A stretch of 60,493 bases of DNA, the filler included, from Hausera hauseri (Eukaryota), in NCBI GenBank assembly GCA_046269625.1. It is 11 parts of 11 records of this genome, joined end to end, with 100 filler letters (N's around TTAATTAATTAA, not from the genome) between each part and the next. Parts side by side here need not be neighbours in the genome. Positions count along the whole stretch, not along the records: positions 31,160 to 36,527 come from JBJURY010269286.1; 10 more parts are not named here. One strand, given 5' to 3'. Position numbers and translations under genes: made by a program. Within the stretch, counting starts at the first letter, position 1; the number at the start of each line of letters is the position of its first letter. Positions 2,791 to 51,852 of the stretch are shown here, piece after piece. Under the pieces are notes generated by a model, which was not told the origin of the DNA, ran no database searches, and worked only from the letters and a program-made list of their open reading frames with translations.

Positions 2791-2811
2791 GATTTTTGCA
2801 TCACAGATTCA

Positions 2812-3857: not shown

Positions 3858-3891
3858 ACAAACTGCATAATCATTATTGACATCATTGTAA

Positions 3892-6559: not shown

Positions 6560-6591
6560 ATAAAATCTTCATCTTTGTACCATGAAGTACT

Positions 6592-12299: not shown

Positions 12300-12399
12300 N
12301 NNNNNNNNNNNNNNNNNNNNNNNNNNNNNNNNNNNNNNNNNNNTTAATTAATTAANNNNNNNNNNNNNNNNNNNNNNNNNNNNNNNNNNNNNNNNNNNN

Positions 12400-16378: not shown

Positions 16379-18289
16379 NNNNNNNNNNNNNNNNNNNNNN
16401 NNNNNNNNNNNNNNNNNNNNNNTTAATTAATTAANNNNNNNNNNNNNNNNNNNNNNNNNNNNNNNNNNNNNNNNNNNNGTTAAAACCCTTGATGGGTATC
16501 ACCACCACTCCTGCAGATTGTAAATCGTTGTTATTTAAAGTGGCAAAATAATCAATTAATAAGATTATAACGAAATAACTAACATTTATATAGAATATGA
16601 AATAGGAAATGCACAGGTACAGGTACATAATGTACAAATGTCGGTGCATATAAAATGCGCAAAATTACTGTAAAATAAAATAACAAAATTTAGTATTAAT
16701 TAACGTATATATTTTCGTTAATTAATAGGTACAAACCTAAAGGACAAGTTTTCTATAGGCGCCGATCGGTTTGGTTAATTGCCTGTAGGCAAATTTTAAA
16801 ATTCAAATTTGTACAGCAACGTCTGAAGACAATTTTAATAATTGCAAATCCAAATTCCATGGATGCCTGGAAACTAATCTTGATCCAATTTATAAAATTA
16901 AAATTCAAACCACGGACCTGCGTGAAATGCCCGGGAATCGATTATGATTCAATTAAAAAATAAATATCAAATCTCCGGTTTACACAGAGAAGCCCAAAGA
17001 ACAATTTTCACAATGCGTGGACAAAAGAACTGAGGGGGTGGCGTTCTTTGGAGGACGTTGTAATCCTCTTCCAACCAACTAGGGGTCTGGGGACCATAAA
17101 ATATCTTATTGAATATACAATATAACATTAAAAACAAAGATAAAGAAGATGCATCTAAAAACTCACACATGTAGGAATCCAATATGTACCTGTGTGTTCC
17201 GTTATGACAAAGCTAGAAGTTTAGAAACTGTGACGTCATGGGCACCGTGGCACGTGACACATCAAGTATGGGAAGCCGATGGAAAATTAAATACATCAGT
17301 TCGTTGGGTATTTGGGTAGGCAGACTGACTTGCATTACGCGATATTACTGAAGATCCAATGGTCGCCTCGATTTGAGGGTTGAGAGCGAAACATTCCTGT
17401 AAATATTAAAACCCCGAGAATAGTCCAAAAAATACGTACGCCTTTGACTGCTACTTTTGATTGAACGTGGTCAAAGAAACTTGCAGCTCAAAAATAGTTT
17501 TCACTTCACATTTTGGATATGAATAAAATGATGAATTCGATAGAAAACCTTTATTGTTCATCATAGTACAATATGTCAACGCTAAAAATTTATTATGAAA
17601 GTGTTTTGGTAAATACAAACCATTTATAGAAACAACTTTATTACAAACAGCATAAAAGAGGACGGGTGGATTGACCAAATGACGATTTTTGTACGGCACT
17701 TGTACGTTATAAATTAAGTGAAAGAAATAAACGAATATGTTACAATTATACACAAACAGAGAAACATCTATATATAGGGATTATTGATACTTCCATACTA
17801 ATTTAAAAGATCACAAATATAACCATTCAACATTTTAACAAGAACACTCGAAATAGTTTTATTGTACATTCTGATAACTGATATGTTCAGTAATTCCGGA
17901 CAATGAATCAACATCAATCAAATAAGTGTTTCCGCAACTTTTAAATCTTCATTTTTGATGGATAATGATACAAATTGTTTGGATGTCTTATTAAGACGAT
18001 TTTTAAGTCCATTTTCTATGGCTTACTTGTCAGCTAATCTTTTTTAAAATTTCGAATTTCTTTCATTAGTATTTTGTTTTCGGCTATTAATAATAATTTG
18101 TGTTTTCTAAGTCATACTTCCTTCACTGATTCGAGAACTCATTCTATCTGTTTAACCGATTCTTGTTCGACATCAGTAAAATCATTTTTACTTTCTCCGC
18201 ATGGGAATAAATGAGAATAAATTTGATTGTTTTATACACAACGCCGAGTTTATCGACGCTCTCTGCATATATTTTGTTGATCTTGCAAC

Positions 18290-20894
18290 TTTCGAATACT
18301 GGACTGCTTAATTGGATTCGAGCGGTTGCGTGATAGCGACTGCAGCAAAGAAAACCCGAGGGAGGAATAAAAAGTCCGGCCAACGGCGCCACCAGCGTGA
18401 AACAACGCACTCGGCTGTGTCCGGCCGAAATGGGCCGCGGGGCAACAAAGCATGTGAACACCACATCACCTACCGTGATAAAATGAAAACTATAAAGCGA
18501 AGAACAATAGAGACAAAAAACGCACAAAGGAATAATAGTTGTATCCTATTCGGTTTTTTATGTATCAGCCGTTGTATTTTATCTACATGTTGCTCTCTAC
18601 TTACTGAAAGTAACTCTGCATGTTTTGTTTGTTTGCCTTAAGTTTGACTGCAGAGGTGTAAGTTGAAGGAAAAATCCGAATTTACCGTAGGAACTGTTTT
18701 AATTGTTAAAGATGAAGGTTGCAAAGGAAAATTAGCTGAAGGTGAAAAGAAGAAGGAAGATAAGGTAGATAGGAAGGGTGGAGAATTTGAAAACGATTGA
18801 AAATTTGAAGAAGACTGAGGAAAAACATAAAGTGGGACAGAAATAGAAGAAAGCGTGTTTGAAGAAGATGCAAGATGTGAGGAAAGTTGAAGATTTGAAG
18901 AAAATTGAAGAGACGAATCAGGAGGAAATTTATCTTCAAGTAAAACTGGATCAGTTGGCAGGGTGAAATTGGTTGAGTTAGATGGAAATGGAGAAGTGTA
19001 AAAAGAACCAAGAGAAATGCAGTAGAGTTGTGTTGGTTTTGCTATCTTCAGGAGTATCGTCAACGAAGAAAGACGTTTTTAAGTTTGTGATGTGAACAGC
19101 TTGTTCTTTGCCGCTCTTAAGAACCGTGGCAGTGTGAGAAGACAATGCAAGGAGTTAGAATGACCCAACGTACTGTGGTTGAAAACTACAAGATGAAGGA
19201 TTACAAAGCCAAACAAACCTAGCGGTATAAAGATCATTAGGTATATTTGTCTTGTTGTTGTTTACAATTTTACGAAATGGGTCTTTGTTTAATGTCACAA
19301 AGTGATTTTGCGCATTTCGAATTAACTCATATGTTGGCGTGTTATCTATATCAGTTAATTCATATAGCGCTCATATAGGTGTGCCAAACAATGTTTCAGC
19401 TGGTGCACAGCACGCAGTTGTAGAGGGTGTGTTACACCAACCGAGCAGGACCAGTGGAAGGAGAGATGCCCAGTTACTGTGTGATTCAGCAAGGATTATG
19501 AGTGAGGTCTTCATTGTGCGGTGGAATCAAGTAAACCTTTCGCTAGGGGATGATATGGAGAAGTGTGTATGTGTTTGATCTCCAAGCTACTGACTAAGGA
19601 TTTAAAGAGATTTGACTCGAATTGTGCACTTTGGTCCGTGATGATGAAGCGAAATGAGCCAAATCTGCCAATCCAAGTTTTGATAAAGACCTCAGCGGTG
19701 GTGTCCGTGTTGGTGTAGCGTAATGGAATGGCCTCTGGCCATCGAGAAGCACGGTAATGATGGTCAATATGAATTGATGGCTCTTATCTGGACGAGGAGA
19801 GCCGACTAGGTCAACATGCACGGACTGGAAACGCGACGTACAGGGAAGTGGTATAGTGGTGACTTCAGATGCTTGTTAACTTTAATCTTTTGGCATGTCA
19901 CACACTCCTTAACCCATGTCTGTACATCTGATCTCATCGACGGCCATATAACGTTGCGTTGAAGAAGTCGAAATGTTGCTTTGGCACCCGGATTATGAAG
20001 AGCATGAACGCTGTAAAATGCAGTTTTCTGCAAAGATGAAGAAGGTATTTGTTTGTAATTACCGGCTGTGGAGGTATAGTAAGCGATTCCCTCGATGATT
20101 TGGTGTGATCTGGAGGATTTAAGAATATTATGCATTGGCAGGTTTTGCTGAAGTACTGCCTGTGAAAAAATCGGAATGACTTCTATGATATTAACTGACC
20201 ATGACAAAAAATCGGCAAATAGATTGTCAGTGCCGGAAACATGTACAATTTTAAAACTGAATGTCAACAAGTATGATATATGACGTTCTTATCGAGGTGA
20301 CGGAATTTTCATGTCCATTATACGAAGCAAAGGTTTGCAGTCTGTTTGGATGGTAAAAGACCTGACGATTCACAGATGCGGGAAGTACTTTAGAGTTAAT
20401 ACTATAACTAGGGTCTCTCCGTGAAAAGCTAAATAACTACATTTGGGAGGTGTTAATTTACGAGAAAATGATTCCAAAGGCTCACTGATGTTATTGGATG
20501 TTTGATGCAGTATTGCACCAACCACTGTGGTAGAGGCATCTCTGGTTAGTATTAATTCTGAATCTGGTTCGGGATAAGCTAGTATTTCGACCGTTTTTAA
20601 ACCTTCGCATAGATGGTCAAATTGGTTGATAAGTTCAGAGGTCCAGTGAATTAACTGTTTCTTCTTTCCAGGCGAAAGAAATCAGAAAGGTCTAGTTAAT
20701 TCGGAACAGTGTGGCATATATTTATGAACTAAGTGAAATGTGACAAGAAAGGAGCGCATCTCGGTTGCTATCAGTGGCAGTTGTGTGTTTTAGCTGAGTT
20801 ATGCGGTCTTGTTGAGGCGAGTGGCCACATTGCTGATGACTTGATCAAGAAAGTTGATTTTTTGTTTGGAAAAAGAACATTTAACAAAGTTGAC
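18290..20894 (-). mobile_element. Gypsy family A copy: RNase H-integrase-tail-3' LTR (LTR starts 18465)
   Basis: DAST, QTDCKP, DNLFADFLS, HNPGAKAT, CVTCQK, HVDLVG; GGTGA|TGTGGTG junction. The left boundary is approximate. Confidence 0.9.
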
Positions 20895-22129: not shown

Positions 22130-23692
22130 CCATAGATGAGGAAAATTTACTGAGGCGATTCAATCTACGGGCGGGAAGAGAGGACTTCAGAGAGAGCATG
22201 ACAATGGAAGAACCAATGAAGATAGCGCATCTCAGAACTCAGCCGAGTCACGACCAACGTAAAGACAGATCTTATATGAGCAGTCACGACTACGAAGTAG
22301 TAGCACAACAAACCCGATGTTAAAGATGCGGAAGAATCGGTCATAAAATCAGACAGTGTAAGTAACAAAAAACAGAAATATCAAGTGCTTCAACTACGGT
22401 AGAGATGGCCACATAGCCAGACAGAGTCGAGCGAATGCTGAACAGGCCCAAGTCATCGATCAGAGATCAGACAGGACACAACAGCAGATAAAGACTAAGA
22501 TACAGGGAAACGCCTCGCCTGCTATGTAGAGGGTTCAAAAAATTCAAAATAGACACAAAAAGAGCCCAACAGCAAACTCATCAACAACGATAGAAACAGC
22601 AGGAAATAGCAAAAAATGTTTACAGAAGGGAATAAAAAATGAAATAGAAACTAAAACGATCAATTTGGCGGGCGACCCAAGCTCACGTGTACTAAGAATT
22701 GGAAAGAGAAGACTGTGAAGCCTAGTGGACACAGGGGCAGAAGTAAGCCTAAAAAGCGAACGAATATATCGATTAACAAAGGACAAGTCGAGTCATTCCC
22801 TGGAAAGCAAATTTACAATCTGTATCCGGAGAAAACCTGGACGTAATGGTATCAACAAAGATACAGTTCAAAATAGGAAATGGAAGCTTAGAACACTTAT
22901 TTTATATAGCACGAAAAATGAATCGGTCGATGATTTTAGGTCGAGATTTTCAAGTGGAAAATGGAGCTCGGTTGTATTTTGACCAGCATGAAGTAAAGAA
23001 TCAGAGACTGCTATACAGATTTAGAGGATGATATGCATTTTGCTGCAATAGTGAGAAATAAAAGAAACACAACAATGAAACCGAACACAGTAAATATTCT
23101 CCTTGGTAAAGTAAAACAAAGCGAATACTTTGAGGAAGTTGAAACAATCAATCAAACAGAACTAGGTGAAGGTGAAATAATACAAGAACCGGTATAGATG
23201 GTATAGGGCTAATAAATAAGAAGTGGAATGTTCCTGTAATGGTTTGTAACAATACAGATAAAACAATAACATTAAAAAGAGGATGTGTGATAGAGAAAAT
23301 TTATAAATATGACCACAGCAACGAAGGAAACAATGACCAGCATCAAGATGCCGACATTGACAAAGCCACAGCTGCGAGAGCTCAGACATGGGGGATAGAA
23401 GACAAAAACAACCAAGAAAAAAATAAATCAAGTAGATTTAAACGGACGGAAACAAACACCAACTCGCATGCAACACAGACAGCAAATGCTGCAGGAGATC
23501 ACACAATGGTGTCAAAGTTATGATCAACACAACCAGTATAGAGCGTCTGACGTTCTTACTAGTTCTCAAGAAAAGATAGAAGAAAACTCTAATAAAAAAG
23601 CAGACAAAGAAGAAAGAATCAAAGAGCTTCTAAGACAACTAAAATAAGACTCTGAAAATAGAGAAAGAGTTGAAGAATTTATAAAGAAATAT
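22130..23692 (+). pseudogene. Gypsy family B gag C-terminus (two CCHC knuckles), protease and linker
   Basis: C*RCGRIGHKIRQC (22318), CFNYGRDGHIARQS, LVDTGAEVSL (~22725), MILGRDF. Confidence 0.85.
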
Positions 23693-25429: not shown

Positions 25430-26049
25430 NNNNNNNNNNNNNNNNNNNNNNNNNNNNNNNNNNNNNNNNNNNNTTAATTAATTAANNNNNNNNNNNNNNN
25501 NNNNNNNNNNNNNNNNNNNNNNNNNNNNNCTCGATAATTTGATTAATTGTTATTTGAATTGGTTGTTGAAATGAGAAGATCCACAATGTTAAATCCAAAT
25601 GACAATAAAATGACGGAAACAATAAAACAACGGATTAAAATTTTTGTATTTAAAAAAATTCAATAATCTATTTACAATCTTTACATTTATTTACACAAAA
25701 CAAATACAAAGGTTAAGAGCCCGATTAAGCATGCTTTATATAAAGTTGATGCAGTTGATTTCAAAATTTTCGATGAAAAATATGGCAAAACGGTTGTCAT
25801 GAAAATGATGTCCTCCTGTTTTATACTGCTGCCGATTTTGGCAAAATCATCAAGTATGATCGACGAAAATTCTAACCTTTTAAAAATACTATTTGTAGAA
25901 GGGTATATTGCCAACGTGTGAAATGACGTAATAATATCTTGAAATGATAGTCAATGGCCGAACGAGTTTGATTTAATAGACGATTTAATTGACGATTTTC
26001 TCACCTCTGTTGAAAAATTGCTGATCTTCTGTCTTATTCATTGAGAGAA

Positions 26050-29000
26050 ATTGGAGATTGACCAGCAACTATCCCGGTGAGGAAACCGAGTGCACCCACG
26101 GCCAACGGAACCAGATCACCCCCCCCCACCCGTAACAGAAAAAAGGCTATGTAAGGATGAAAAGGAATAATAACAATTATGAGAATGAAAAGTGTTTACC
26201 GTCTATTCAGTTTTAGTATGAGTTAGGCGTTGCGTACCATCACAGAATTTTTCTCTGCTGTAGGTACTGAATGTCACTCTGCGTGGCTTACTCGATACAT
26301 TTGTGCTGGGCTGTTGAGTGATATTTTGTGATGGAGATGATAGCGAAGATGGGTCAAAGAAAAAGGGCGATGCAATTAAAAGTGATGTAAATTCATTTAG
26401 AAAATCGGTAGGAGTGCTAGCGGACTTTGAATTGGAAGTAGAATTGGTATATGGAATGTCGTCAATGAAGAAAGCAGGCTTCAGATTCGAAATGTGGATG
26501 TTGTAAGGTTTGTCTTGGCGTAAGATGGTAGCTGTGTGAGATAAAAGATTCAGCAGTTTGTACGGACCAACATATTGAGGTCTAAAACCAGAAGTAGATT
26601 GATCTTTTAACCACACAAACTTGGTGGAGTATAAGTCCTTCGGAATGTAGGATTTTTTGTTGTTAAAGAGGCGATAGAATGAATCTAAGCTGACCTCTAC
26701 GAAGTGAGATTACGCCGCACGAATGTTTTCGTCTGTAGATTTGTCGTCGAGAGTAGAAAGCTCAAATAAGGCCCGAATTGGAGTCCCAAAGAGTGCCTCG
26801 GCTGCAGCACAGCCGGTAGTGGTCGAAGGTGTGTTGCGCCACTCTAGTAGAATAAATGGTAGAATGGACGTCCAATTACGATGAGTGTCAGTCAAGATTT
26901 TTAAGGAAGCTTTCATTGTTCCATGGAACCTTTCAAGAAGGCCATTTGCTTGAAAATTGTATGGTGTTGTATGAAAATTGGATATTCCCTAGTGTTTGAC
27001 TAGTGATTTGAAAAGTTTCCACTCAAAATCTGGACCTTGATCCGTTATTATGTAACGTGGGGAACCAAAGAGACTAATCCAGATTTTTATAAAGGCGTCG
27101 GCAACTGAATCAGTGGTCTTTGAACAAAGAGGAACGGCTTCAGGCCAGCGAGAAGCACGATCCATCATGGTAAGTATATATTTATATCCGTTGTCTGAAA
27201 GTAAAGGACCCACTAGATCAAGATGAACCGTATGGAAATGTGATGTACAAAGAAAATAGTACAGCAGTGGTTTAAGGTGTTTGTTGATTTCGTATTTTTG
27301 ACAGGCTACTCTTTCACCCAGTCGTGTACATCTTTGCGCACTGATGTCCATACAACATGATGTTGAAGCAGGCGAAAGGTTGCTTTCGAACTTGGATGAT
27401 AGAATGAATGCGTATAAACAAAAGCTGGCTTTTGTAAAGGTGGTGCTAGAATGATCTTTTTATTACTGGTATTTGACGTATTATAAGCAATGCCATGAAT
27501 GATTTTGAATGATTTAAAATAAGTAAGGAAGTCAGCAAATAATTGATGGCCTTTAACACTTTGGTTGAGAAAATTGGCTCAACAGTGATAAAGCAAACCG
27601 ACCTCGATAGAAAGTCTGCCACCAAATTATCTGTGCCTGAAATATATTCCAACACAAAGCTAAACGTAGACAGATATGATATATGTCTCTTTTGCCTCGG
27701 TTATGGCTGTTTTAACGACATGATGTGCAGTAGAGCCTTGTGATCAGTTTGAATGACAAATGGACGAGAGAGAAGTAGATGTTTGAAATGTTTTACTGCC
27801 AGAACTATGGCGAGTAACTCACTATCAAATGTTGAATAACGGCTCTCGGATTGCGTAAGCTTTCGGGAATAGAATTTTAGTGGTTCATCGATGCCATTGG
27901 AGATCTGGTGTAGTACAGCACTAGTAGCTGTGGTTGAGGCATAGGTTGTAAGTATACAATCTGCCTTGGGTTTAGGAGAGGCCAGTATTACTACGGTTTT
28001 AAGGCCTTTGCACAAGTGATAAAATTTGGTTACTAGATCAGGAGTCCAGTGGATCAGCTGTCTCTTTTTCCGGATAATAGATGCGCGAAAGGTGCTCTAA
28101 GCTTATAGCAATGCGGTACGTATTTGCGGATGAAGTGGAGTATGCCTAAGAAACTTCCCGTATCCGTGGTAGTCGTTGGTAGAGTTATGTTTTTTAATTG
28201 TTGTAGTCGACTCGATTGTGGAGAGTGGCCGTGAGCAGTGATGACGTGACCGGGGAAATTTACACGTTTTTGGAAGAAATGACACTTGGAGAAGTTGACT
28301 TGCAAATTTCTATGATGTATTCTGTGAAAGATCATAAGAAGGTGTTCTTGATGTTGTTTGACAGATGTAGAGGCAACTAATATTTCATCAATATATGGAT
28401 GAGCGAAGTCAAGGCCTCAGAGTACGGTATCAATATGCCGTTGGGAAGTTTGAGAAGCACTACGTAAACCAAATGGCATAAAGATCTATTCGTAGAGGCC
28501 AAATGGAGTAATAATAGCAGTTTTTGGAATATCACCAGGTGCAACCGAAATTTGATAATACGCTTTATGCAAGTCAATTGTGGAGTACGTGTTAGTGTTG
28601 GTAAGGCTGTGAAGGATGTCATTTAAGAGAGATAAAGGGTAAGCATCCAGGATTGTTAGATTATTTAACTGCCGGTAATTACTGCACGGTCTGTATGTGC
28701 CATCTTTCTTCGTAACAATATGTAAAGGCGAAGCCCATGGTGATTTGGATCGTCGAATAATGCCCGCCTTTTAGAGTTCATTGAACTCTGATTCAAGAGC
28801 ATTTCGTCTGCGAAGTGAAAGTGGCCTTACCTTTTGTCTGATAGGTCTTTGGTGTTTGGTGACTATATGATGATAAGTTGTGGAGTGCGGCTTGAAATTG
28901 ACGTCCTTCTTGAGAATACGGGAACAAGAATTTTTGATATAGGATTTAAGATCAGAACCCAACAATAAGAATGATGAGAGCATATCATTAAAAGAGTCAG

Positions 29001-30760
29001 TGTCCGTAATTGATGTAGAATCACTGAATATTTCATTAACGACATTTGGTTTAGCCGATTGTTTTAAGATTGATTTGTTCCCACTTGACGAGATTGAAAA
29101 TATGGATGAATTATTGAGTGTGTTGTTATCAGCAGATGAACAGCATGTCACATTGATATTTGAATGAGCAGAGGAAGATAAAATGTCCGACTGGTCGTTT
29201 GGTGAGCATTTGTTAGAATTTGCAGCGAAGTTTCTGCGCAGGAGGCAATTATGCTTACAATCGACTAACAAATCGTAGGCAGCAAAGAAATCGGACCCTA
29301 TTATGGGCGATCTGATGTTGGCTATGTGAAATTTCCAGAATTTCCCTGGTAGGTTGAAGAACGTGAAAGTCAGTTTTGTGGTACCTACAATGTTTAAAGG
29401 TTGATCACATGCAGTGAAATGTGGAGGACAGAGAACTGTGTTAGATGTAGGATCAAAAGACAAAGGAAGAAGTGAAAAAGCAGCTCCTGAATCGATAAGA
29501 AAATCTATTTTTGATGTGTCTCCAAATAACATTTCAGCTTTCAACAGAAAGACTGCAGAAGCGGTTTTGAAACGGCCAGAAGATTGAATGATATTGCCTG
29601 TACCAGAATGTGCAGTGGTATCTAGTGGCATTATTGGTTTTTTGAGACTTGTTGAGGAAAAAAAGAATGTGAGTACGAGGAGGCGAAGAAGATGGAGAGA
29701 AATTAGAATTCATTTTATAATATTAGCATCCTGGCACACACGACCTAGCCTTGGACTGATACTTTGTGTGATAGATGCAGACTGGATTGTCTACTGCATA
29801 TCGTTCATCGTAGAATCGACAGCCTAAAACATATTTCCTTGCGTCTCTGCGGATTTTACTGTAATAAAAACATGTCATTTTACCATCTCTAGATTTGGAA
29901 CGAGAAGAGTGCCTGGAAAAACTGCGATAGCGTGAAATACGATTTTCGCTTTGTCGAGGCGCGGATAAGTCACTGAGTTGAACTTTGATCGCAGAAATTG
30001 CTTGTTGGAGTGTGTCGAACTGCTTCTGCATTATATGCAGTTGTTATGCAAATAAAGTGTTGAATAACGGTGAGTGAGCGGTTGCTGCGGCTATTGGCTA
30101 TGAATTATTAGACTGCAGAATATCAAAACTTTTGTCTGCCAACAAAGCGAGTTTTTCGAGGGCAGTAGAGTCGTCTACTACAGTGATTAGCGCTCGGACG
30201 AATGTTGTCAAAGACGAAAGAAAATACCGACGAATTAGATCGGCATTGTTTGTGGGAGTCACGCCCAAGGAGTTCAGTTGCAAGATGGCAGTTTTAAGGA
30301 AATCCGATGGTTTTTGATTTCCGGTCGCATGTTCATTAAAATATTTTTGAATTATGCTGTCGATGGAAGGGTCCGTGATATGTAGAACTGATTCATACAG
30401 CATATCATACGGGCTTGAAGAAAAGAGTGTGTCAGTTAGATTATAAATTTGCTGCTTGATATCAGCTGGAAGTAATAGCAGCAAATTATTAGCCGGTTGA
30501 AAGGAATCTGTAATGTGATTGGCTTTAAGCCATTGCAAGTGGAACTGCAACCAGGTACGACTATAATTTGTCTTTCCTAGAAAAAATCCGTGCACGGGAG
30601 ATTTGGGGATGTTGTTGGTGCGGTGTCGATAGGTCGACGACCAGATATAGTTTTGGTTAAGTTTTCAGCAGAAGGGTCAAGGTCTGATCCACCACGGATA
30701 CGAAAATGAAGAGTGAGGTAAAGGGTTTTGTAGGAAAATGCAGAAAGCTGGTCCTGGATT
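26050..30760 (-). mobile_element. Gypsy family A near-full-length internal region (gag-pro-RT-RH-IN), PPT at ~26116-26132, truncated 3' LTR
   Basis: gag 30098-30595, FLIDSGA, SPWASPLH, TDHKAL, HLDLVGP, TDQGPDF, PQYVGPY, RRVTFS tail. Many frameshifts. Confidence 0.93.
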
Positions 30761-31159
30761 AGTCAGATTATTTATTAATTGCATTCACTCTCTTATTTGC
30801 TTAATATCTGACATGTTCTTGATTCTTGATACTGACTTCAACAACTGGTGAAATGTTCTCATTTATATGATGCTGCAATTGGAGTTGAGACGTCTCAAAT
30901 TTCAGTTCATTGAACGAATTTCGATTTTTATGAGCACAACTTTCAAGTACATATAACATATCGTTCTTTGTTTCTTCTAAGTATTTTGAAATGTACACGA
31001 ATTTCGATTCGTAGATTGAAACATTATACTCGTAATCCAGAATCGTTTTGATGTCTTTCNNNNNNNNNNNNNNNNNNNNNNNNNNNNNNNNNNNNNNNNN
31101 NNNTTAATTAATTAANNNNNNNNNNNNNNNNNNNNNNNNNNNNNNNNNNNNNNNNNNNN

Positions 31160-31860
31160 CTTCGTTCTCCGGAGTGCGTATTGTACAAATCGAGTTGTAA
31201 CTGGTACTCTTGTCCTAGTTGCAGTTTACAGCACACAGCAGGTCGTCAACCCAGATAACAGTACTCCGGAATAAGAACAGAGGCGTTCAGCGGTATAAAT
31301 CGGGCGGAAATTTGTCTGTCTTCTGGCAGTTCTATTTTGGTATCAATTCGAATACATTTATTCTTTAAGTCTTTGGAAATCCCAATAATGTTATAATCTA
31401 AAAGCCTTTTAAATGGATCAGTGTTTTGGATTATCTCATCCGTCTTGGCTCGATTCGTGCCATTTCGTTAAGGCATTATTATTAAGAATTCAGTAATTAT
31501 ATATGCTTGAGCTCCCGGTTGATTATAATAACACATCTATAACCTGTATCGGTAGTTTTGTCCGAAATCCAATTCACAACATTTCCTATGAACTCCATAT
31601 TGGAAATCGCATGTTTTCATCGTGGATCTAGTTACAAATATTATTTGAAATTTTACATGACTTTGAATAGGTTTACTCGCTTCAAACCATGCACATGGTT
31701 TGATCCAATCCATATCGTATACCCTAAGTGACTGTAAGTTCAGGATATCTTTTCGTCTTGCCGCATAATGTAGTTTTTCGGTTAAAGTTATCTACCTTTC
31801 CTTGAGTATATACGAAGCGATTAACGATAAGGCGAGAACTATTTGTACATATGATATTGG
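31160..31860 (-). pseudogene. Env-like / secreted Cys-rich repeated domain in frame with integrase
   Basis: Manual translation of the integrase frame continues ~210 codons with 4 stops. It gives two similar modules (CCELDFGQNYRYRL / CCKLQLGQEYQLQL) and sequons NGT and NAS. Confidence 0.6.
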
Positions 31861-32868
31861 TCTGGTCACTATCGATGATGTTTTTATTTCTTTATTTGTT
31901 TTGCTCGAACGCAAATTATAGCGTTTGTTTGGTCTTATTTCCGTTTTAACTACTCTCTGGATTGATATGACCTCCTCCTTGCCATTTTTGTTCATATAAA
32001 TTGTGTTTGGTGTGGTTTTGGTAACTTCGTAGAGTCCTCTGCCTGTTCTGGTGAGTTTAAGAGATGCGCCTTTCTTTGCCACTCGGTAATGTGCGTAAAC
32101 CAAATTTCCTGGTTCTAAGTCGTGTGGTTTAGCCTTCTTGTCACATTGCCCTTTATATTGTTTTTGGTATTCTCTGGATAATTCCTTGGCTATTTCCCAA
32201 CACTTGTGTAATCTCAATTGTAATACTTCGACAAAATTTTGCTCTAAGTCTTCCGTTCTGGTTGCATATGGAATCAGTCCTAAATCTGTAGGCAGTACAG
32301 CTTCTCTACCGTACATCATGAAAAACGGGGTGAATCCTGTTGCAGCATGTGGAGTAGTATTAATGGCAAACTGTGTACCTTCCAAGAAATCGTCCAAATC
32401 TTTCCGGTCTTTCGCGACTACTGTCGATAAAATTCGTATAACTGTCGACTTCATTCGTTCAACCACTCCGTTACACTGGAGATGATAAGCTGTCGTGGTT
32501 AGTCGCTTGATTTCGAAAATTTTGGTAATCTTTTCGAGCAGTTCGCTCGTAAAGTTTCTCCCTATGTCTGTCAAAATTTGTTCAGGCGTCCCATATCTGC
32601 AAATAATTTTCCGGACTACTACTTCTGCCAGGGTCTCTGCCTTTTGGTCTACTAACGCTATAAGCGTGACGAAATGAGTCAATCGGTCTACACAGGTCAA
32701 AATGTATTTATTGCTTTTGTGAGTCGTAGGTAACCTTCTTACAATATACATGGACATTGCTTGCATTGGTCTGTCGGGCACATTGATGGGTTTAAGCTCA
32801 GCGACGTAGTTTTTCACTTTTCTCTGTTTGGTTGCGCATATTTCACAAGCATTTACCCAATTTCTCAC
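31792..32868 (-). CDS. Gypsy family C integrase core and C-terminus with hydrophobic signal-like tail
   Basis: 358-aa ORF with Zn CxxC and a D,D(35)E region, ending YVQIVLALSLIASYIL. Confidence 0.88.
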   Translation of the reverse strand: MRNWVNACEICATKQRKVKNYVAELKPINVPDRPMQAMSMYIVRRLPTTHKSNKYILTCVDRLTHFVTLIALVDQKAETLAEVVVRKIICRYGTPEQILTDIGRNFTSELLEKITKIFEIKRLTTTAYHLQCNGVVERMKSTVIRILSTVVAKDRKDLDDFLEGTQFAINTTPHAATGFTPFFMMYGREAVLPTDLGLIPYATRTEDLEQNFVEVLQLRLHKCWEIAKELSREYQKQYKGQCDKKAKPHDLEPGNLVYAHYRVAKKGASLKLTRTGRGLYEVTKTTPNTIYMNKNGKEEVISIQRVVKTEIRPNKRYNLRSSKTNKEIKTSSIVTRPISYVQIVLALSLIASYILKER

Positions 32869-35800
32869 ATCGATGTAAATGCTCGGCCAAAGATATTTAT
32901 TTTATATTCTTTCCAATATCTTCTTCCACGACATGTGTCCGGTTAGGTATAAGTCGTGTTCGGCCATTAGCACTTCCGCACGTAATCCCTTTTGGTATGA
33001 CGACTAATTTTCGTCCCTTTCGTTTGTATTACAACACATTTTCGTGGTTCAAATCTCCTGCGATGCAGCATTTGTGACCATGTCGTCGTAGGTATTTCCG
33101 TAACTGATGACTCTTTGATGTTTTGTTTCTATCAACGAACTCGATAATTTGTTGTACAACTTTGTCTTTTCTTTGTTCGACAGAAATCTTCAATGCCTTA
33201 TCTAGTGTGAGAGGCCGTTGCCTCTATATTAAGTCTTCGAGGTAGGCTTTTCTCATTACCGTAACTGCGTTTGTTTTAGTTTTAAGTCTTGACAATGCAT
33301 CGACATCGACATGTTTATTTCCGGGTTTGTATGGGAATTCAATATTGTAACGTGAGATCTCCTCAATCCATCTGTTGTTTGTACAGGTCGGATTATTTGC
33401 TCTACCCTTTAAAGTCGTAACTGCCTTATGATCAGTAACGATTACGATCTTTTGTCCATAGACATACACGTTAAAATGTCGCAGGGCTTTCTTCACCGCT
33501 AACGCTTCCAACTGCGTCACAGAATAGTTCTTCTCGGCTTTCTTTAGAGAGCGTCCTCCATATGCCATAGGGTGTTCTAGCTCCTCGTCTTCTCGTTTCT
33601 GAGATAATTCTTACCCAGTGCCTTCCTTACTGGCGTCTGTTTTGATTTTGAATGGTAGGTTGAAGTCAGAATATCTTAAAACGGGTTCACTAGTTAGAAA
33701 TTTCTTCATTTCATCGAAGGCTTTCTGTTCAACGTCGGTCCATTTCCATTTGATCCCTTTTTTAAGCAAGCGGTACAAAGATACGTTTATCTTTGAATAA
33801 TACCCACATAAAACTAACCAGTGCCTTAATTCCTTTTTATTCTGTGGTTCCATGCAGTCCGATATTTTACTCAGTAATTATTTATACGGCTTTCATCCTC
33901 CTTCTTCAAGTATATTCCCAAGGTAAGACACAGAATTTTGGGCCCATTTGCATTTCTTAAGATTCAGTTTCAATGCCGCTTGCGCCAATCTCATGAATGT
34001 ACCTTCAGTGTCCTTTAAATGATCTTCTTCCGTCTTCGACGCAATCATGACGTCGTCCAGGTAGGCAAACGCGTGTTCCAATCCCATTGGCATCTTGTTC
34101 ATCATGCGGGTAAAGGTGGCTGGCCAGGTAGTTATTCTAAATGGCATAACATTAAATTCGTATATACCGTCGTGTGTCTTAAATGCAGCTTTGTAACGAT
34201 CTTCTTCCTCTATCTCCACTTGCTAATATCCGGATTGTAATTGAAATGTGGTGAACCATTTTGCTCCAGAAAGTCTATCCAAGGCTTCCTTTACCGATGG
34301 TAATGGGAAGGAGTCTTTCATCAAAAGTGTGTTTAACGCTCGATAGTCAATACAAAATCGGTGCTTAGTGGTACCTTTTTTCTTAACCATGAGTATAGTT
34401 GAGTACCAAGATCGGTAGCTCGGTCTAATTATGTCGGCCTTTAAAATTTCTTCAACTCCTTTGGTTATCTGTGGCCTTAACGAGTGTGGAGGGGTACTAT
34501 TTCGGCATATTTTGATCCTCTAAATCTGTTTCATCGTTGACCCAGGCTTTTTCTTAAGGTGGATCGCGAGTCTTAAGGCTTTAGCTCGGAAAATATCTTC
34601 TTCGTCTTTAGCAATGACCGAGCTATAACGACAAAGTAATTCGTAAAATCAACGGTATGATTCTGGTGAAAATTTTATTTCAACGTGGGGTGGAAATTCA
34701 GTACATTTATAAGGTTTCTATTCGACAGTGAATGATTATACTCTATGTGTGTGCCATAAAGTGGTATTGGCGTACAGTTTGATTGGAGTTTGTGCATTAT
34801 TCGCTATTCTGATCGGTATGCGACCCATTGATACTCTTGTTAAAACGTTACTGAGTTCGATGTTTGGATTAAGCGATTCATTCGGCTCAAAATATACTAG
34901 CTGATCGTCATCTTGACGTATATAAACGTATATTAATATTTCGGTTCTGGACGGTATGTTTTTATCTACGGAAATCCGAACGTCTCCGAATTTTCTGTCT
35001 TTAGTGGTTTTAATTTCTTTTATTGGGCCACGTTTGATCAACTTCCCTGCATTGCAATCTATTGCTATGTTAGGTAGCTGTCTCAATATATTGCACCCCA
35101 ATACTACATCATCCGTTAATTGCTCCATTATTGAAAATTCATGATGAAAAGATTGTCCCATAATACGAATGTCTGGTCTCCATCGGAATTTGCTTTAAGG
35201 CGATTGATCGGGTCTGTTGTGGGAGGTGGTTATAATTGTATCCGTAGGAATTGCCGTTTTGAATCATATTTTATCAGTGATATTTGTGATCCTGTATCTA
35301 TCAAAGCGTAGACTTTCCAATCTTCTAATTGAATTTTTGCGAAGGGCCTACCTTCGATTACCGTACCGTAATAACTTGGTGCTATTTGGGGGCGTCGTAT
35401 CATGGGCACCTTATAGCCGTTGATGGTAACTTCAGTGGTTCCAACTGGCTGATCGATCAATTGTCTTAACTCTCCAATTGGGTATAGTTCATTATTCGCA
35501 CAATTCGCGTTTTCTATTCCCTGGTTTCTAACCGGCGGCTGGATTTCTTGTTTTTGGAGATTATTTGTTTCGCGGCTTCTGGTAAATGTCGACTGCATTT
35601 CGTTTGGTCTAGGTACTCTAGGTGAATAAATTATACTGTAATCGTCGACTGCCTTGAGACGATGCGGAGCAGACGTTCTTTTCGTTTCGTGGATCTTACG
35701 CATTATTCAGTAATGTTTTGTTCCTTCGTAAGGATCCTCTAGACTAAACGGCTTCCGATAGATTCCTGTCTAGCACGAACTCATAGATTGTTTCTCACAG

Positions 35801-36744
35801 ACTTCGTACATAGGTGCCGTTGGCGGCAGTATTGGTAATGGTAGTTTCATAGCCGAGTAGGTTTTGTGCCTGTTCGACTTGGAGATAACGTTTCCTCCTT
35901 TAGGTTCGTCATCGTCAGAGTTATTTCTTCGTGTCTTAGTATCCATGAATTTTTGCCTGTAATCGAATGTGTCTTACGTCTTCAATTATTGTAACCAACA
36001 TGTCGCTCCACATACACTTTCCATCTACTCTCTTCATAAGCCTTTAGGAATTTACCGAGAGGTATTATAATAGCCGTTAGAATCTTACACGAGAATCCCG
36101 TCAAAGTGAATATCTCGTATCCATTTATAATTGCTTGAATTATCGCTTTACCAGTTGAATCAAGAAATAAATTGCTAGGAATCCTGACGCGGCTTCTCCG
36201 AATATCAAGAATCTTCAACAAATTTATGCAATATTTCCGTAGTTACCCTTCGGTAGTAGTTGACACCGAGCAATGATTTCCACTTCGCTTGATAACGCCA
36301 GTTTTCTAGTATTGCATGCATGGCTATGTTTAATTCATGTGTGCGCTGATGGGGGAAAGCGAGAAATTGTCTGAACGCCTCTACTTTTTTGGTCGGTAAA
36401 TGCCCTTTGCGGCGGTATCTTGAAATTTATCATCGGTTATTCCTTTTATTAAATTTGTTCCTGTTAACTTGGTCGGCGGCGTAATTATGCCGCCGTTTGG
36501 TAAACTTACCCAATCGGTTTCGCTACGNNNNNNNNNNNNNNNNNNNNNNNNNNNNNNNNNNNNNNNNNNNNTTAATTAATTAANNNNNNNNNNNNNNNNN
36601 NNNNNNNNNNNNNNNNNNNNNNNNNNNGCACGAAGCTCTAAGCAACGGAGCTAACTGGCCATGTATTTAACAAGTGTTGTGGCTTGGATCTACTGTCCTA
36701 CTTCGCGGCGCAACTGGGCTAATACATAACAAGAAGATTCTCTT

Positions 36745-42855: not shown

Positions 42856-42971
42856 ATGACGTGCCTTCCTCCCATTCGCCAGTTTCCCTTCCCCACCATG
42901 ACGTGTTCTCCTCCTATTGGCTTCCTTCCTTCCCGGGGGGGGTTGACGCCAACTCCTCCCTTCCTACTACT
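42856..42971 (-). mobile_element. Polinton-like terminus (5'-AGTAGTAGG...) inserted in BEL integrase
   Basis: The minus strand switches from ...TPNHFIIAGQ coding to AGTAGTAGGAAGGGAGG... with a CCAAT box and two ACGTCAT motifs. Confidence 0.55.
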
Positions 42972-45900
42972 GACCGGCTATAATGAAATGATTGGGTGTG
43001 AAAACGATGTCGTCTTTACTGTCAGCTGATGGAACTGTAAGTGGTCCATTATTTGTTATTCCTTCAATTTCACACAAAATGGTTTGTAGCTCTTCATCGG
43101 TAACATGAGCATCCCCCCGGATTTTATTCAATGCTCCTTTAACTGATTTTATTAATGCCTCATAAGCTCCACCAAAGTGCGGCGCACCTGGAGGGTTAAA
43201 TATCCACCGTATGTGGTTTTGTTCCAGATTTAATTTTGCTGAATAGTTATCTGGTTGTATCTCATAAGTCTCTTTGTCTGCCCCAACAAAATTCGTTCAG
43301 TTGTTTGATACAATTGTTGATGGTCGTCCTGTTCTCGACATAAATCTTTTAAACACTCAGATGAATGAATTCGTATTCAAGTCCGAAGCTAACTCTAGAT
43401 GTATTCATTTGCAAACAAGACACGTGAAGAGGCAGATAAAACGTTTTTCTTGGACATGCCCTTTTCTTTGCTTGGTATTAATCGGACTTGCAAAGTCTAC
43501 GTCTGTTTTGTCAAAGGCCTTTAAAGGTAACTGAAGTTTGAACGCTGGTATAGGTGCCATCTTAACGTTTACCCCTTTGGCTCATCCTCTTTGGCATGTT
43601 TTACAATAGTTCTTATATGATTTTGTACTTTTCTGATTTTTGGGAACCAATATCTTTTAGACAATTCGGCCACCTGATGGTTTATTCCAGCAACGTGTTT
43701 CAGTATCAGATGTACATCTTTTATTATTAACTTCGTAACTTGGATTCTTGGTGATAGTATTATTAGGTACTTGAATTCCCTGTTCAGCCATGGTGTCGTG
43801 ATCAGTCGACTGTTGGACCGTAAGATGCCTTCGGTGTTTAAAATCGGGTCCGCCTTAAATATTGGACTTTTGTTATTTATAGCCTTTTTTCTTTGAGTAA
43901 ATTTGTTCCTACTAGGAATTCTCGTTCTTGATCTGATTTTATAAGTTCCTTTCCTGCCATGTCTTGGAGGTCTAGCCGGTCTACTTCTATTATGCTTATT
44001 CTTTCTTGTCGTATTAACTGTTCTATTTTCGACTCAATACAATTCCTCCACTGAGACTTCTCGTTCGTTAAGCTTATTTCGTTTTCATCATTATGTATCA
44101 GGAAGTTTTCTACTTCTACTTCTTGATTGTATCTCTCTTCTGACCATGTAAACAGACCAGTGGTATCCTTTCTTCTTTCTACATCTATTTCCTTTAAAAA
44201 TTCTTGGTGTTGTTTCGACCAACTAATTTCATCTTCTGACAAGAATTTTGGTCCATACCACCAATTATGATTCCCTTTCATTTCTTCTACGGATTGGCCT
44301 CTTGACAAGGCGCCCGCTGGGTTCTTGCTTGGTTTTACATATTTCCATCAAAAGTTTGAAGAAAATTCCTCTATTTACGCTATACCGTTTGCTACGAAAG
44401 TTTTGTAGTGTTTGATGCAGTTTTGGATCCAGTGTAATACATTTTTACTGTCAGTCCAAAGTGTAAGCCTTTCATTCTTCTCTTTCATAGCCTTTATTAT
44501 CCTTACTTTTAGTTTGACTCCCACACAATTTGCTAACTATTCTAGTCTCGGTAATGCTATCGATTTTACTGGCATCACTTTCGCTTTAGCTGCTACCAAT
44601 ATCGTTAGAAAGTTTCCGTCCTTTTTCCTTGTTCTGACATAACCCACTGAGCCATAACCTAATTTCGAGGCGTCACAAAATATATGCAATTCCCAATTCT
44701 CATCTTTATTCAATCCTAGGTATATGTCGATCTCTATTTCGTTCAATAAGTAGACCTGTTCCATCTAAGATTTTATTCTTTTCGTTATTTCATCTGGTAA
44801 TCTTTGATCCCATTCATAATTTCCAATCTATAGTTCCTTCTCATCATCTTTCCACTTATAGTGTAACAACTTAGAAATTCCAGGTGATCGTAGATTTTGG
44901 GGATTGTGCTTAGTAAGGTCCTTTTCGTTATTGTTTGTTCGGCAACGTCTCTTTCATTAAACAGGTATTTGTCATCCATTACTTTCCATTTCACTTCCAA
45001 CGTCTTTGCTGCTAATGTGTTCTTTCCTGATACGCCATATTCCTTTGATCTTTTGTCATTTGGAATATCGGCGATGAGTCTCTCTGAGTTCGCTGCCCAT
45101 TTGTGAGGAGCCATTCCCGCCTTATTCCATATTTTGTTTAATCCGTGATACAGTTCTATTATCTCTTCTTCAGTTGGAGCTAAATCTATGCAGTCGTCCA
45201 TATACGCAGAGTGCTTTATAATTTCTGTTGCTTTCGGATATACCTTTTCAAACACTTTCGCATTAAACCTGGACACCAATTGTGCTAAAAAAGAGGAACT
45301 GTTTAATCCGAACATTAATCTATGGAATTTGTATGTAACATCTTGATTATTTTTCTTCCATAAGAAAAGTATATATTTTTTGTCCGCTGGATCCACTGAT
45401 ATTTGGAAGAACATCTCGTGTATGTCGCAAACTAAAACGTACTTGTTTCGACGCATCCGAAGTAAAATACCAACTACGTCAAGTTGTAATTTTGGACCGA
45501 TTTCCAAGAAGTCATTTAAACATTTCCCTCTATTCTTCGCGGCTGCGTCAAATAATATTCGACATTTTGTGGTATCACGATCAAATTTAACTACGGGAAA
45601 GTGTGGTAATAACCATTTCCTTTCCTTTTCCTCTTCTTTCGATATTTCTCTTATATATGACTTCTCCTCATACTCTAATAACTTCATTGCACTTCTCTTT
45701 CACTCTATTATCTTTGTTCAGTTTTTTTATTAATAAATCCAATCTTCTTTTTGCCATCCATGATAAGTCAAAACCACTGACATCTGGATGTCTCTCTGTC
45801 TTTCAACGTAACTTATCACTAAACCTTTCGTTTCCGTATTTTATTCCGATCGTCATCTAAGTTATTCAATTCCTGTCTTTCCTGGAATCCTTGTTCAGCC

Positions 45901-47480
45901 TCCCAAAATCTGTTCCAATCTTCTTGTATTTCATCGATTCTAGTCCAGAATGTTCTAACGTATTTGGTCCTTACCTTTTCCTTTTCATCCCCGATTATCC
46001 AAACGCACGTCCATCCAAGTGGAGTCAATCTGGCTACCGGTTCGTTTGTCTTTCCCGCTACTTCTTTTATAGATCTACGTAGATGTATGTAGTTCGCACC
46101 GATTATTCCATGGACTGATTTCGGCGATTTTTGAACGGCAAACTTTATAGTACTCAAGTGTAGCCATTTATTCTTCTTAATTTTCCAATTCACAGCCATC
46201 ATTTTCCAAGTTGGATCATGGTGAACTAATCCTTCAATTGGATGTTAACCTTCCCGTTCTTACTTCGTAAGTTTATTTTTACCCGTTTCATTTTCGACCT
46301 TGTAGTTTCCCCACATGCTACCATGACGGACACATTTTTCTGACTGCCGACTAATTTTAATTGTTCTACAACAGAACGTTTTACAAAGAATTCTGTACTC
46401 GCATTATCTAACAACATACACACCTTTACCTTTCTATCTCTATTCTCGAGCCATACGCATACCGTACGTAAGGCTATCTTATTTCCTGTTGGAGCCTCTT
46501 CTGATAGCCGAGTTACGTAAGAGCTAACTTGTGCTTCTTTAACATCATCTCCGTATTCATCCACTTCTTTCCTTAGTTCTTCATCACATTGTGCAGTGTA
46601 ATATGTTTTTTCTCGTTTTTTAAGTGTATTTCTGTTTGACGGCAGATCATAAGCATAACGACATTTTCCCCATATTTGCAATTCCCTTTCATGTAGTACT
46701 TACAAACTTGCATTTTCCTATTTCCTTCATTAATTTGCAAATATTTACATTTATTTTTAAATGTGAAATCTCCGCTTTTCTCGACCTCCCAGCATATTTG
46801 GTTTTCGGTTTTGTTCATTGATTTAATACTGTATCTTTTTCTGTTTTGCTTGGAATTGGCGCCTTATTCCTGCTGATATCTTTGTCTACGTAAAAACTTC
46901 TTTGCGATTTTCTTTAAAATTCATGCCCTTTAGAAGGTATATAACTTTTATTATAAGCAAGAAACCATTTTCCAACTGTCAACTTATTTTCATTGTAGGT
47001 CCGATTAGACTCATAATCTTTTCCTGGATTAAAGGTATCTATGCCTCTGACACTTTCGATTGTATATCTTCGGATACCTGCTTCCAACTCTTCCCGTAAT
47101 TGTAACTCCTCAACTGTTCGATTTGAATTATTTTCAGCAACATGTCTTTCCCATAAAAATATTATAGACTCTGGGAGCTTTTCCATTAAACTTTGATACA
47201 ACAACCCTCCACCTAATTCTTCTTTCCTTCCAAAATTTTGTATCCTTACTGCTATGCCATCTAGTAATGCGACAAACAGGTATAGACCTACGATATCCTC
47301 TTCTCTAATTGGTTTGAACCGAATCACCTTAGTCATAAAGGCGGCGTAGCACCGCTGTTCCCCTATATAATAAGAGTTAAGTTTTTTTATTGCGGCTTCG
47401 TAGCCCTCTTCTGGTAGATCAAAATTCTCAATTAACCTTTTCGGCTCTCAACAAAGACACTGGTTTAATTGTAATTCTTT
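42972..47480 (-). mobile_element. BEL/Pao LTR retrotransposon, decayed (gag-pro-RT-RH-IN)
   Basis: LLDNAS protease, TPLGW, LPHFPV..DTTKCRILFDAA, CLNDFLEIGP, YMDD, LHIFCDAS, LPRLE, NPA..SRG, WWYGP.FL, WIFNPPGAPHFGGAYE, TPNHF. Confidence 0.95.
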
Positions 47481-47580: not shown

Positions 47581-50500
47581 GTGACGTTTTCAGTGTACGG
47601 TGGAAGCGTTCTAGGAGGCCATTTGATTGGGGATGATAAGGCGTTGTATGAATGTGATGGATCCCCAATTGGTTGACGAGGGATTTGAACAGGTTGGATT
47701 CAAATTGGGACCTTGGTCCCTGATGATGAAACTAGGTGATCGGAACCTGCTAATCCATGTGCGAATAAAAACGTCAGGTATGGTGTCGGTGTTTGTCCTC
47801 CGCATAGGAATGGCTTCTGGCCATCGTGAGGAACGGTCCATGATGTTGAGAATAAATTGATGACCGTTGCCTGGAGGAAGAGGGCCAACTATGTCGATAT
47901 GCACGGACTCGAAACGCGATGTGCAGGGTAAGTGGAATAGTGGTGGCCTTAAATGCTTAGTGATTTTATATTTTTGGCATGCAACACACTCCTTAACCCA
48001 TGCGTGCACTTCGAAACGTATTGACGGCCATATTACTTGTCGATGGAGGAGACGAAAAGTGGCTTTATCACCAGGATGGTGTAGTGAATGTACATGATGA
48101 AATGCTTGTCTGTGCAAGGAAGGTGCTAGAATGATTACTGAATGACCTAATTTGGATGTGCCCAAAGCCACGCCGTCAACGATTGTGCAAGATTTAAGAC
48201 TTAAGCATGTCTAGAGGTGGCTGGTTCTGTTGAAGTTGTTCTTGCGTAAAAATGGGAGAAAAACTTATCGAACTAACCAACCTAGATAAAAAATCAGCAA
48301 CTATATTGTTAACTCCTTTTATATGTTTAATATCGAAATTAAATGTCCACAAATATGATATTTGGCATTTTTGGCGTGTGGAAGGGTGTTTCATGGTCAT
48401 GATGTTAAGTAAAAGCTTATGATCAGTTTACAAAGTGAAATGGCGAGCGACAAGTAGGTGTGAAAAATGCTTTACAGCGAGCAAGATTGCCAATAGTTCT
48501 CGATTAAACGTGGAATATCTTGTTTCAGGTGTTATTATTTTGCTAGAAAAGAATTCCAAGGGTTGGTATTTTCCTTGTAGATCTGGTGAAGTACAGCGCC
48601 TACAGCAGTGGTTGACAAATCTGTGGTGAGAATAAGATCTACATCAGGCTTGGGAAAGGCAAGAATATCAACAATTTTGAGGCCTTCACGTAGCATGTCA
48701 AATTTGTCAACCAATTCAGGTGTCCACTGAATTGGCTAATGTTTTTACCGCCGCTTAGGTGTGCGAACAGAGCCGTTAATTTTGAGCAGTACGGGATGTA
48801 TTTATGCACGAAGTGTAATGTGCCAAGGAAGCTACGCATTTCGGTGGTTGTACGTGGCAATTGTATGTTTTTAAGGGCTTCGACTCGGTCTGATTGTGGA
48901 GAATGACCGTCTGGTGTGATGAAGTGACCTAAGAAATTAATGCGTTTCTTGAAAAAGTTTCATTTGTCGAAGTTAATCTGAAGGTTATGATGGTGAAGGC
49001 GTTGGAGTATTTCGCGAAGGTGTTCTTCGTGTTGTTTGGCCGAAGATGAAACGACTAGAATATCGCCGATATAAGGGTGTGCGAATTAGAAATCGGAAAG
49101 AATGGAATTAATGTGCCTCTGAAAAGTTTGTGCAGCATTCCGTAAACCGAATGGCATAAAGAGGTATTCGTAGAGGCCGAAAGGAGTAGTTACTGCGGTT
49201 TTTTTGATATTTTCAGGTGCTACCGGTATTTGATGGTAGGCTTTAGCTAAATCGATGGTCGAATAGATGGTGGTGGACTTAAGGCGATGTATAATATCCT
49301 TAATGAGTGGCGAAGGATACGCATCCATGATTGTCAGGTTGTTAAGCTGTCGGTAGTCACCGTATGGTCTGAAGGTACAGTCCTTTTTTTGGACAACGTG
49401 TAATGGTGACGATCAAGGAGATTTGGAACGGCGTACTATGCCGGAACGTTCTAGCTCGAGAAATTCGGCTTCTACGGCCTGTCTACGGCGAGGTGACAGA
49501 GGCCGTACCTTTTGGCGTATTGGACGTTGGTGCTGTGTGACTATATGGTGTAGAGTGCTGTTGGCAGGAGTGAAAGTACGGTCTTTTTTAAGGAAGAATG
49601 GACATGATTTGTTGATAAATTGCTGTAACGTTGTAGGTAGATGTGAGAGATTCGGTGAAAGTGGTGAAACGGTTTGAGTAGTAGCGGATGCAATTTGTGA
49701 GTTGTTAGGTGATGTGCAGTCGAGTGGAATTTGGTGCAAGATAATTGAGTTGAAAATGGTGTTGTCTGAAGTAACTTCGCTGAATGGGACAGTGTTAGTG
49801 GCAGTGCCACACTTATCGACATCAAATCTTGATTGTACATCCATATTATAGTTTAAAAATTTACGAATAGAATTATTGTTATAATAAATCAAATTATTGC
49901 AGACTTTTTTAAAATTGAGTTCCGTCCCACGGCCGACTGCGCGGTAGTCGAAACGCTATTAACATGACCAAAAATGCCGCCAACGGTGTCTCTCCTCAAA
50001 CATCGCTGACTGCAGTCAACCAGTACATTGTAATGTGAGAGAAAATCAGATCCAAGGATTGCCGACTGGACGTTAGCGACTGTGAACGTCCAACAGAAAG
50101 ATGTAGAGAAACCAGACAAAGTGAATAATAATGTAGCCATGCTCGAGATGCGCAGCGGCTGCCCTGAAGCAGTATATAAAGGCTTAAGTTTGAATGGAGA
50201 ATTTTGTGTAGGAAAGGCTTGCGGTAATAGAGAAATTGCTGCTCCTGTATCAATAAGGAAGTCAAGAGATTGAGTTGTAGGAGCAGTAATTGCGGCTTTT
50301 AGCGTGAAGACTGCGAAAGATACATGCCGGCATTTAGAGTTTGAAGGAGTGCCTTCGCCAGAGGTTGCCGTGACTTCTGGCGGCGAACTTAGATTTTTGG
50401 AAGTGTGACGACTGTTTGAAGTGAAGGCAGTACGTCCGTCGTTCGTATTGGATTTGAAGGTGCAGCCGTGGATACATTTACGTGCTTGATTTTTGAATCT

Positions 50501-51790: not shown

Positions 51791-51852
51791 ATACGGGGCG
51801 CCCGAGTTTCCTCCGAAATCACGCAACGGCTGACTAAACTCTTGAGCCAATT

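Follow-up and report, generated by a model that had tools for sequence, protein, structure and literature searches.

Closest to the gene that we describe here are the envelopes of the "errantiviruses": Chary & Hayashi collected 1,512 env-carrying Ty3/Gypsy elements under this name and sorted their envelopes into F-type or HSV/gB-type (PMC13524379). According to the parts of that study that we draw on, these envelopes are fusogens, with either a furin site and a fusion peptide or the five gB domains with fusion loops, and some entries in its tables have fused names (POL-ENV and GAG-POL-ENV). The search used known envelopes as baits, so it would probably miss a gene that encodes fibronectin type III (FN3) modules. 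The word "fibronectin" has 0 occurrences in the main text and supplements of PMC13524379.

Other genes in the envelope position are more varied. The ORF3s of Gypsy elements in bdelloid rotifers encode, in the sections of PMC5408684 that we consulted, GDSL esterases, DEDDy nucleases, or two-helix proteins of 210-230 amino acids. Atlas virus and the Belpaoviridae of nematodes are BEL/Pao elements, not Gypsy elements, and have a phlebovirus-like GN-GC envelope in frame with Pol; their GC, a class II fusogen, combines elongated domains I-II with a domain III of FN3 topology (PMC9094657, consulted in part). Two further proteins are non-canonical and have been linked to passage from soma to germline: the short transmembrane sORF2/FAST-like proteins of the Drosophila MDG1 group (PMC11952523), and the Env of the Oikopleura Tor elements, which is furin-cleaved and has fusion features, and which in Tor3b has its transcription start within pol (PMC4402516). 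FN3 modules are not described for either protein in the parts of these two papers that we draw on.

The element that we report is from Hausera hauseri. It lies on one contig, at positions 31160-36527 of the window, by which we mean the whole stretch of 60,493 nucleotides that was analysed, made of 11 parts joined end to end. We conclude that the gene in its envelope position is real, borne by the family, and apparently undescribed, and that it encodes what models predict to be a tandem-FN3 membrane protein. We found no description of a Gypsy-borne FN3 protein in the open full-text literature (subscription journals and Repbase are beyond that scope). As in the errantiviruses, a Gypsy pol is followed by a putatively signal-bearing, glycosylated, Cys-bridged membrane protein, but theirs have either gB domains or a furin site with a fusion peptide (PMC13524379, in part), while the protein here is predicted to be FN3 and shows no sign of either. 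Like the rotifer ORF3s, some of which have transmembrane segments and cysteines, it is an extra envelope-position gene without a link to a known viral fusogen; unlike them, it is not of the esterase, nuclease, or two-helix types, and "fibronectin" occurs 0 times in the text of PMC5408684. The nematode elements share with the window copy the continuity of frame with Pol, and their GC domain III has the topology that is predicted here, but there is no sign of domains I-II of a class II fusogen in P0005, the one intact relative of our protein.

On this contig, the Pfam matches follow the domain order of Ty3/Gypsy elements (Metaviridae) on the minus strand: protease (weak), reverse transcriptase, RNase H, and integrase. 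The integrase ORF spans 31792-32901 and has 0 stops over 31858-32901. We found no LTR-sized repeat within contig 31160-36527. The features are as follows, in the order in which they are read.

35230..35706, minus strand: end of Gag and aspartic protease region, decayed (Pfam RVP, E 0.053, weak)
33893..34519, minus strand: reverse transcriptase, decayed (Pfam RVT_1, E 1e-28 in the read with stops as X, E 7e-19 in one ORF)
33224..33877, minus strand: RNase H (Pfam RT_RNaseH_2, E 4e-32; RT_RNaseH, E 2e-28)
31861..32901, minus strand: integrase, with zinc-binding part, core, C-terminal tail with RYNLR, and a 20-residue linker; stop-free (Pfam rve, E 1e-9; Integrase_H2C2, E 5e-5)
31804..31860, minus strand: hydrophobic segment, likely a signal sequence (top hydropathy window and alignment with P0005; the signal role is putative)
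31246..31794, minus strand: span with four premature stops (31792-31794, 31537-31539, 31468-31470, 31246-31248)
31492..31746, minus strand: module 1, predicted FN3-type beta sandwich, 4 Cys conserved in P0005 (fold match of the P0005 module)
31396..31491, minus strand: linker between the modules, helical in the P0005 model, with one sequon
31162..31395, minus strand: module 2, predicted FN3-type beta sandwich, 4 Cys conserved, truncated at the contig end (window model and relatedness to module 1)
31060..31159, no strand: assembly join between unrelated contigs (44 N, 12-nt linker, 44 N)

Between the protease and the reverse transcriptase, at 34736-35194 (minus strand), there is a segment of 152 codons without a Pfam match. 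It is possibly a dUTPase-like relic, and a comparable insert appears in the Gypsy element at 22719-23523.

Other contigs of the window carry further elements, and this mixture of BEL/Pao, other Gypsy copies, and a Polinton-like piece suggests that the host is an animal. Decayed copies of what is apparently one other Gypsy family are found at 8190-20894, 25530-31059, and 47581-51818; this family has long, low-complexity, T/C-rich open frames after the integrase (for example 14524-15903, with 460 codons and no Pfam match). A BEL/Pao-type element lies at 42856-47480 on the minus strand (DUF1759, E 1e-5; RVT_1, E 2e-10). At 531-7170 (plus strand), there are decayed ORFs that recall Polinton/Maverick elements, which we presume from ATPase-, integrase-, capsid-, and protease-like pieces; in the five of them that we compared with Pfam, nothing matched at E 0.01. 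At 52992-54138 (minus strand), there are intron-free fragments of the exonuclease of mitochondrial DNA polymerase gamma (PF18136, E 1e-39 and 8e-16). They abut and overlap a fragment of the MCM N-terminal domain (PF14551, E 4e-14), just upstream of the Gypsy at about 47.6-51.8 kb, and the whole looks like a chimera of captured pieces of host replication genes. Finally, one contig (36745-42405) has six tRNA genes (Asp, Pro, Val, Val, Asp, and Gly).

The frame of the integrase does not end where the integrase does. The hydrophobic segment begins 20 residues after RYNLR, in the same minus-strand frame, and has the highest Kyte-Doolittle value of any 19-residue window (1.85) in a read of 580 codons. 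From 31857 to the contig end, this frame runs for 232 codons with 4 stops, compared with 19, 15, 13, 13, and 10 stops in the five other frames. The preliminary description had given about 210 codons and 4 stops for this extension, and two modules about 110 residues apart; we measured 116 codons between the CC motifs of modules 1 and 2. The N-glycosylation sequons that it had noted are two, at 31464 and 31287. The two modules are related to each other (local score 48, matched by 0 of 5000 shuffles). There is no second match to the extension within the window better than E 0.11. Because the contig ends at 31160, the second half of the gene is absent from the window, and the copy lacks the 217 residues that would be homologous to residues 263-479 of P0005. 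This copy is dead.

Related copies show that the gene is nevertheless shared by the family. We took relatives from one public run (share of words 0.19), which is possibly related to the source of the window. At 80% likeness, 1,068 related contigs cover 31160-32000, with depth in all 29 of 29 bins, and 555 of them are under 90% alike. The junction between integrase and signal segment is bridged in frame by at least two pieces, with 0 and 15 gap letters. Two indels are listed in the relatives, each of 3 nt, and gap totals are not divisible by three in 2 of the 8 pieces listed (13 and 1), as would be expected of other decayed copies. Contig depth is lower over the extension than over pol, but depth derived from contigs cannot rank genes. 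To judge from these alignments, the extension is borne by the family rather than private to the window copy.

Among the differences listed (40 of 284, picked by the tool), 19 of 35 in the extension are at third codon positions (p 0.009). The excess comes with the listed differences whose share is under 0.9, where 12 of 16 are at third positions, as expected if there was purifying selection between subfamilies; near-fixed differences are at third positions in 7 of 19 cases among those listed, as expected if the window copy itself had decayed. There is counter-evidence: among the 40 listed of 1,277 differences, 9 lie in the integrase and 0 of the 9 are at third positions, so the test depends on which differences were listed. 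Each of the four stops falls on a listed difference (for all four, the chance is about 0.0004). At each of them, 82-100% of the contig depth differs, although for one stop this depth comes from 2 contigs. Because the relatives differ at all four, the stops are likely private to the window copy.

A full HMMER pass over 1.84 billion representative proteins, among which eukaryotes are thinly sampled, gave exactly 1 match, P0005 (E 1e-40, 40% identity over query residues 1-227). It is a singleton of 479 amino acids, and its source is one ENA contig of 4,939 nt, within which its residence in a retrotransposon is putative. Word-indexed protein searches with the extension found no relative; P0004, which came up in such a search, was set aside as an unrelated integrase match without the extension. 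No relatives of the locus were found in viral contigs, JGI metagenomes, or prokaryote genomes. P0005 has, in order, a signal-like segment, module 1, module 2, a Thr/Ser-rich linker (39% at 285-320), module 3, a transmembrane helix, a basic stop-transfer stretch, and a C-terminal tail of 32 residues with a YxxI motif. It has only two hydrophobic peaks (13-31 and 429-447; the next best is 0.83) and four sequons. Of the 9 cysteines in the window copy, 8 are conserved in P0005, four per module, and two disulphides are predicted for each of these modules. Modules 1 and 2 of P0005 are clearly related (z 9.3), and module 3 has weak similarity to module 2 (42 of 2000 shuffles). The signal-like segment is more conserved than the rest: 16 of 18 residues are the same between 31804-31863 of the window and residues 12-29 of P0005, versus about 40% in the mature modules. 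Signal peptides are not usually so well conserved, which suggests a second constraint, for example a protease site at the junction with Pol, or an RNA element. The earlier inference that this is a real surface protein is supported, and the protein is family-borne.

What fold do the modules have? The preliminary description had remarked that an LxxGxxYxhxh pattern recalls the tyrosine corner of FN3 domains, and had proposed structure prediction and Foldseek. The pattern (L-x-x-G/Q-x-x-Y-x-h) is present once per module, both in the three of P0005 and in the two of the window, and we take L-x-x-G-x-x-Y to be the FN3 tyrosine-corner motif before strand F. A single-sequence model of the window extension has a mean pLDDT of 37.8 and no Foldseek match at E 0.001, although its module 2 matches many FN3 entries (best Z 4.9). 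The P0005 model, from an alignment of two rows, has a mean pLDDT of 43.4, with about 50-65 in modules 1-2 and under 50 in module 3. Both models are of low confidence (pTM 0.25). With the P0005 model, Foldseek gave matches to 163 PDB chains (E up to 0.001), and of the 46 of these that were listed, 45 are tandem-FN3 proteins; the matches listed include fibronectin, tenascin, Tie2, leptin receptor, neogenin, LAR, tissue factor, gp130, contactin, and NCAM. VIA-align placed module 1 of P0005 on a fibronectin FN3 domain (Z 8.6, rmsd 2.4, 82 residues aligned), and about four-fifths of its 50 rows are FN3-type, although Z values of 7-8 are common without a true match. In a viral structure library, there were 39 matches at E up to 0.001, largely to phage tail, FN3, or uncharacterised proteins, and including a protein of a cyprinid herpesvirus (E 5.5e-4). 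Independently of the structure model, a language-model search pointed to fn3 clusters at 0.83-0.88; this is under 0.9 and so a lead only.

Pfam fn3 (PF00041) does not match P0005 or the window modules at E 10, the best structural matches are 8-14% identical to the modules, PDB sequence searches gave nothing significant, and PHROGs and NCBIfam gave nothing useful. A reading of the CC-x-L-x-x-G-x-x-Y motif as NTR/TIMP-type was dropped; the fold searches and the third module favor FN3. The seven-strand FN3 topology is seen for module 1 on a model with pLDDT of about 50-65, and module 2 is weaker. On these models, we think it likely that modules 1-2 are FN3, and module 3 is probably FN3 as well. 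The guess about the tyrosine corner is upheld by fold searches, albeit on the low-confidence P0005 model. The protein would then share with the FN3 superfamily (fibronectin, NCAM, LAR, neogenin/DCC, tissue factor, and cytokine receptors) the predicted seven-strand sandwich and the motif that we call the tyrosine corner. It differs in having no Pfam fn3 match, in its unusual C...C...CC pattern, and in residing in a retrotransposon.

Is the protein made as a fusion to Pol, as had been proposed? In the window, the linker between the integrase tail and the signal segment has no methionine, and the nearest in-frame ATG is at 31995. We found neither a splice-acceptor-like nor a TATA-like site in the 400 nt ahead of the signal segment. 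Of the differences listed, 5 lie in 31858-32000, and none of them creates a stop in the frame of the integrase tail; we saw no frame break in relatives among the listed differences (40 of 284) or indels. The lowest share in the list is apparently about 0.81, so it is unlikely that a near-fixed stop of the family was lost only in the window copy. On the other hand, P0005 was annotated as an ORF of its own. It has methionines at 1, 6, and 10, just ahead of the shared signal segment, and its residues upstream of that segment are unlike an integrase tail. Fused and separate arrangements may both exist in this lineage. The idea of a pol-env polyprotein is supported in part: the frame is continuous in the window copy and the listed pieces, while the ORF of P0005 was called separately.

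It had also been claimed that the extension matches no recognised envelope family, and Pfam agrees: no known envelope family was matched by the window or by P0005, whose sole match at E 10 (E 0.059) is at chance level. P0005 does not have the F-type arrangement of a furin site and then a hydrophobic fusion peptide in the ectodomain. R-x-[KR]-R is absent, RxxR is confined to the tail with none in the ectodomain, and a fusion peptide is unseen, as no hydrophobic window above 0.83 lies between signal and anchor. As for gB, the matches listed for the low-confidence P0005 model are FN3-type. No fusion glycoprotein is among the fold matches listed, several viral rows of which are unnamed and all of which come from this low-confidence model. 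RGD is absent, and so is WSxWS, the motif of class I cytokine receptors. It had been proposed to look for a fusogen or transmembrane segment downstream; a fusogen in the same protein is not supported, because P0005 ends with module 3, one transmembrane helix, and its short tail. The envelope position is thus likely taken by an FN3 surface protein that is not fusogenic and that, as modelled, is unlike envelopes of the F, gB, or phlebovirus types.

We somewhat favor, on the models, a Gypsy family with a single-pass surface glycoprotein of three FN3 modules behind the integrase, which would serve in attachment or adhesion and would likely not fuse membranes. But a shared fold alone is no proof of function, and we considered other explanations. 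The modules could be the ectodomain of a captured FN3 receptor that acts as a decoy or dominant-negative, binding a host ligand or receptor and damping an immune or stress pathway of the expressing cell, with no role in the attachment of particles. Tandem disulphide-bearing FN3 modules, a single transmembrane helix, and a tail too short for signalling do resemble the ectodomains of cytokine receptors, and the fold matches include tissue factor, gp130, leptin receptor, and interferon receptors. The herpesvirus match in the viral library points the same way. Still, P0005 does not have WSxWS, adhesion and matrix proteins rank equal to or above receptors in the fold matches, and the position of the gene is that of an envelope. 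We consider the decoy unlikely.

That the modules are just the receptor-binding front of a longer Pol-Env polyprotein, with a fusogen past the contig end, like GN before GC in Atlas virus, strikes us as quite unlikely: P0005 ends 32 residues past its one transmembrane helix, without a further hydrophobic or fusion-like segment. There are several reasons to take this explanation seriously, namely that the contig stops inside module 2, that the frame is unbroken from the integrase, that nematode belpaoviruses have Gag-Pol-Env in single ORFs and a class II domain III with FN3 topology (PMC9094657, in part), and that the errantivirus tables have POL-ENV names (PMC13524379, in part). We think it very unlikely that a host mRNA was captured once behind the integrase and is a neutral passenger, joined in frame by chance. 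Single-pass FN3 proteins are typical of hosts, and P0005, with its one small ENA contig, may be a host transcript. But the third-position excess among the listed differences, the family-wide cover, and the probably copy-private stops speak against a neutral passenger, and a conserved host family should give more than one match among 1.84 billion representatives, although eukaryotes are thinly sampled there.

If the three-FN3 surface glycoprotein is what we think it is, then it would enter the ER through the hydrophobic segment, which would either be an internal signal of a Pol fusion that signal peptidase cuts, or follow a start of the protein's own. It would be glycosylated and be displayed on the expressing cell or on a budding particle, and the YxxI motif in its tail could allow recycling. 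It would then keep particles or donor cells in contact with a target cell, for example in the germline. Crossing of the membrane would have to come from uptake by endocytosis, from cell contacts, or from a second gene past the contig end. A bolder version is an animal Gypsy lineage with a new class of envelope-position protein: its sole surface protein would be a host-like tandem-FN3 adhesion molecule, in frame with Pol, and the lineage would spread from cell to cell through adhesion and uptake without any viral fusogen. This is possible but rather doubtful.

If the favored explanation is true, then there is a further kind of surface protein in the envelope position, one that is invisible to searches that use known envelopes as baits. 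It would also mean that retrotransposons can adopt a cellular adhesion or receptor fold instead of a viral fusogen, a point that matters for the question of how non-infectious elements become infectious. Because P0005 is an intact natural protein, its display at the surface and its binding are directly testable.
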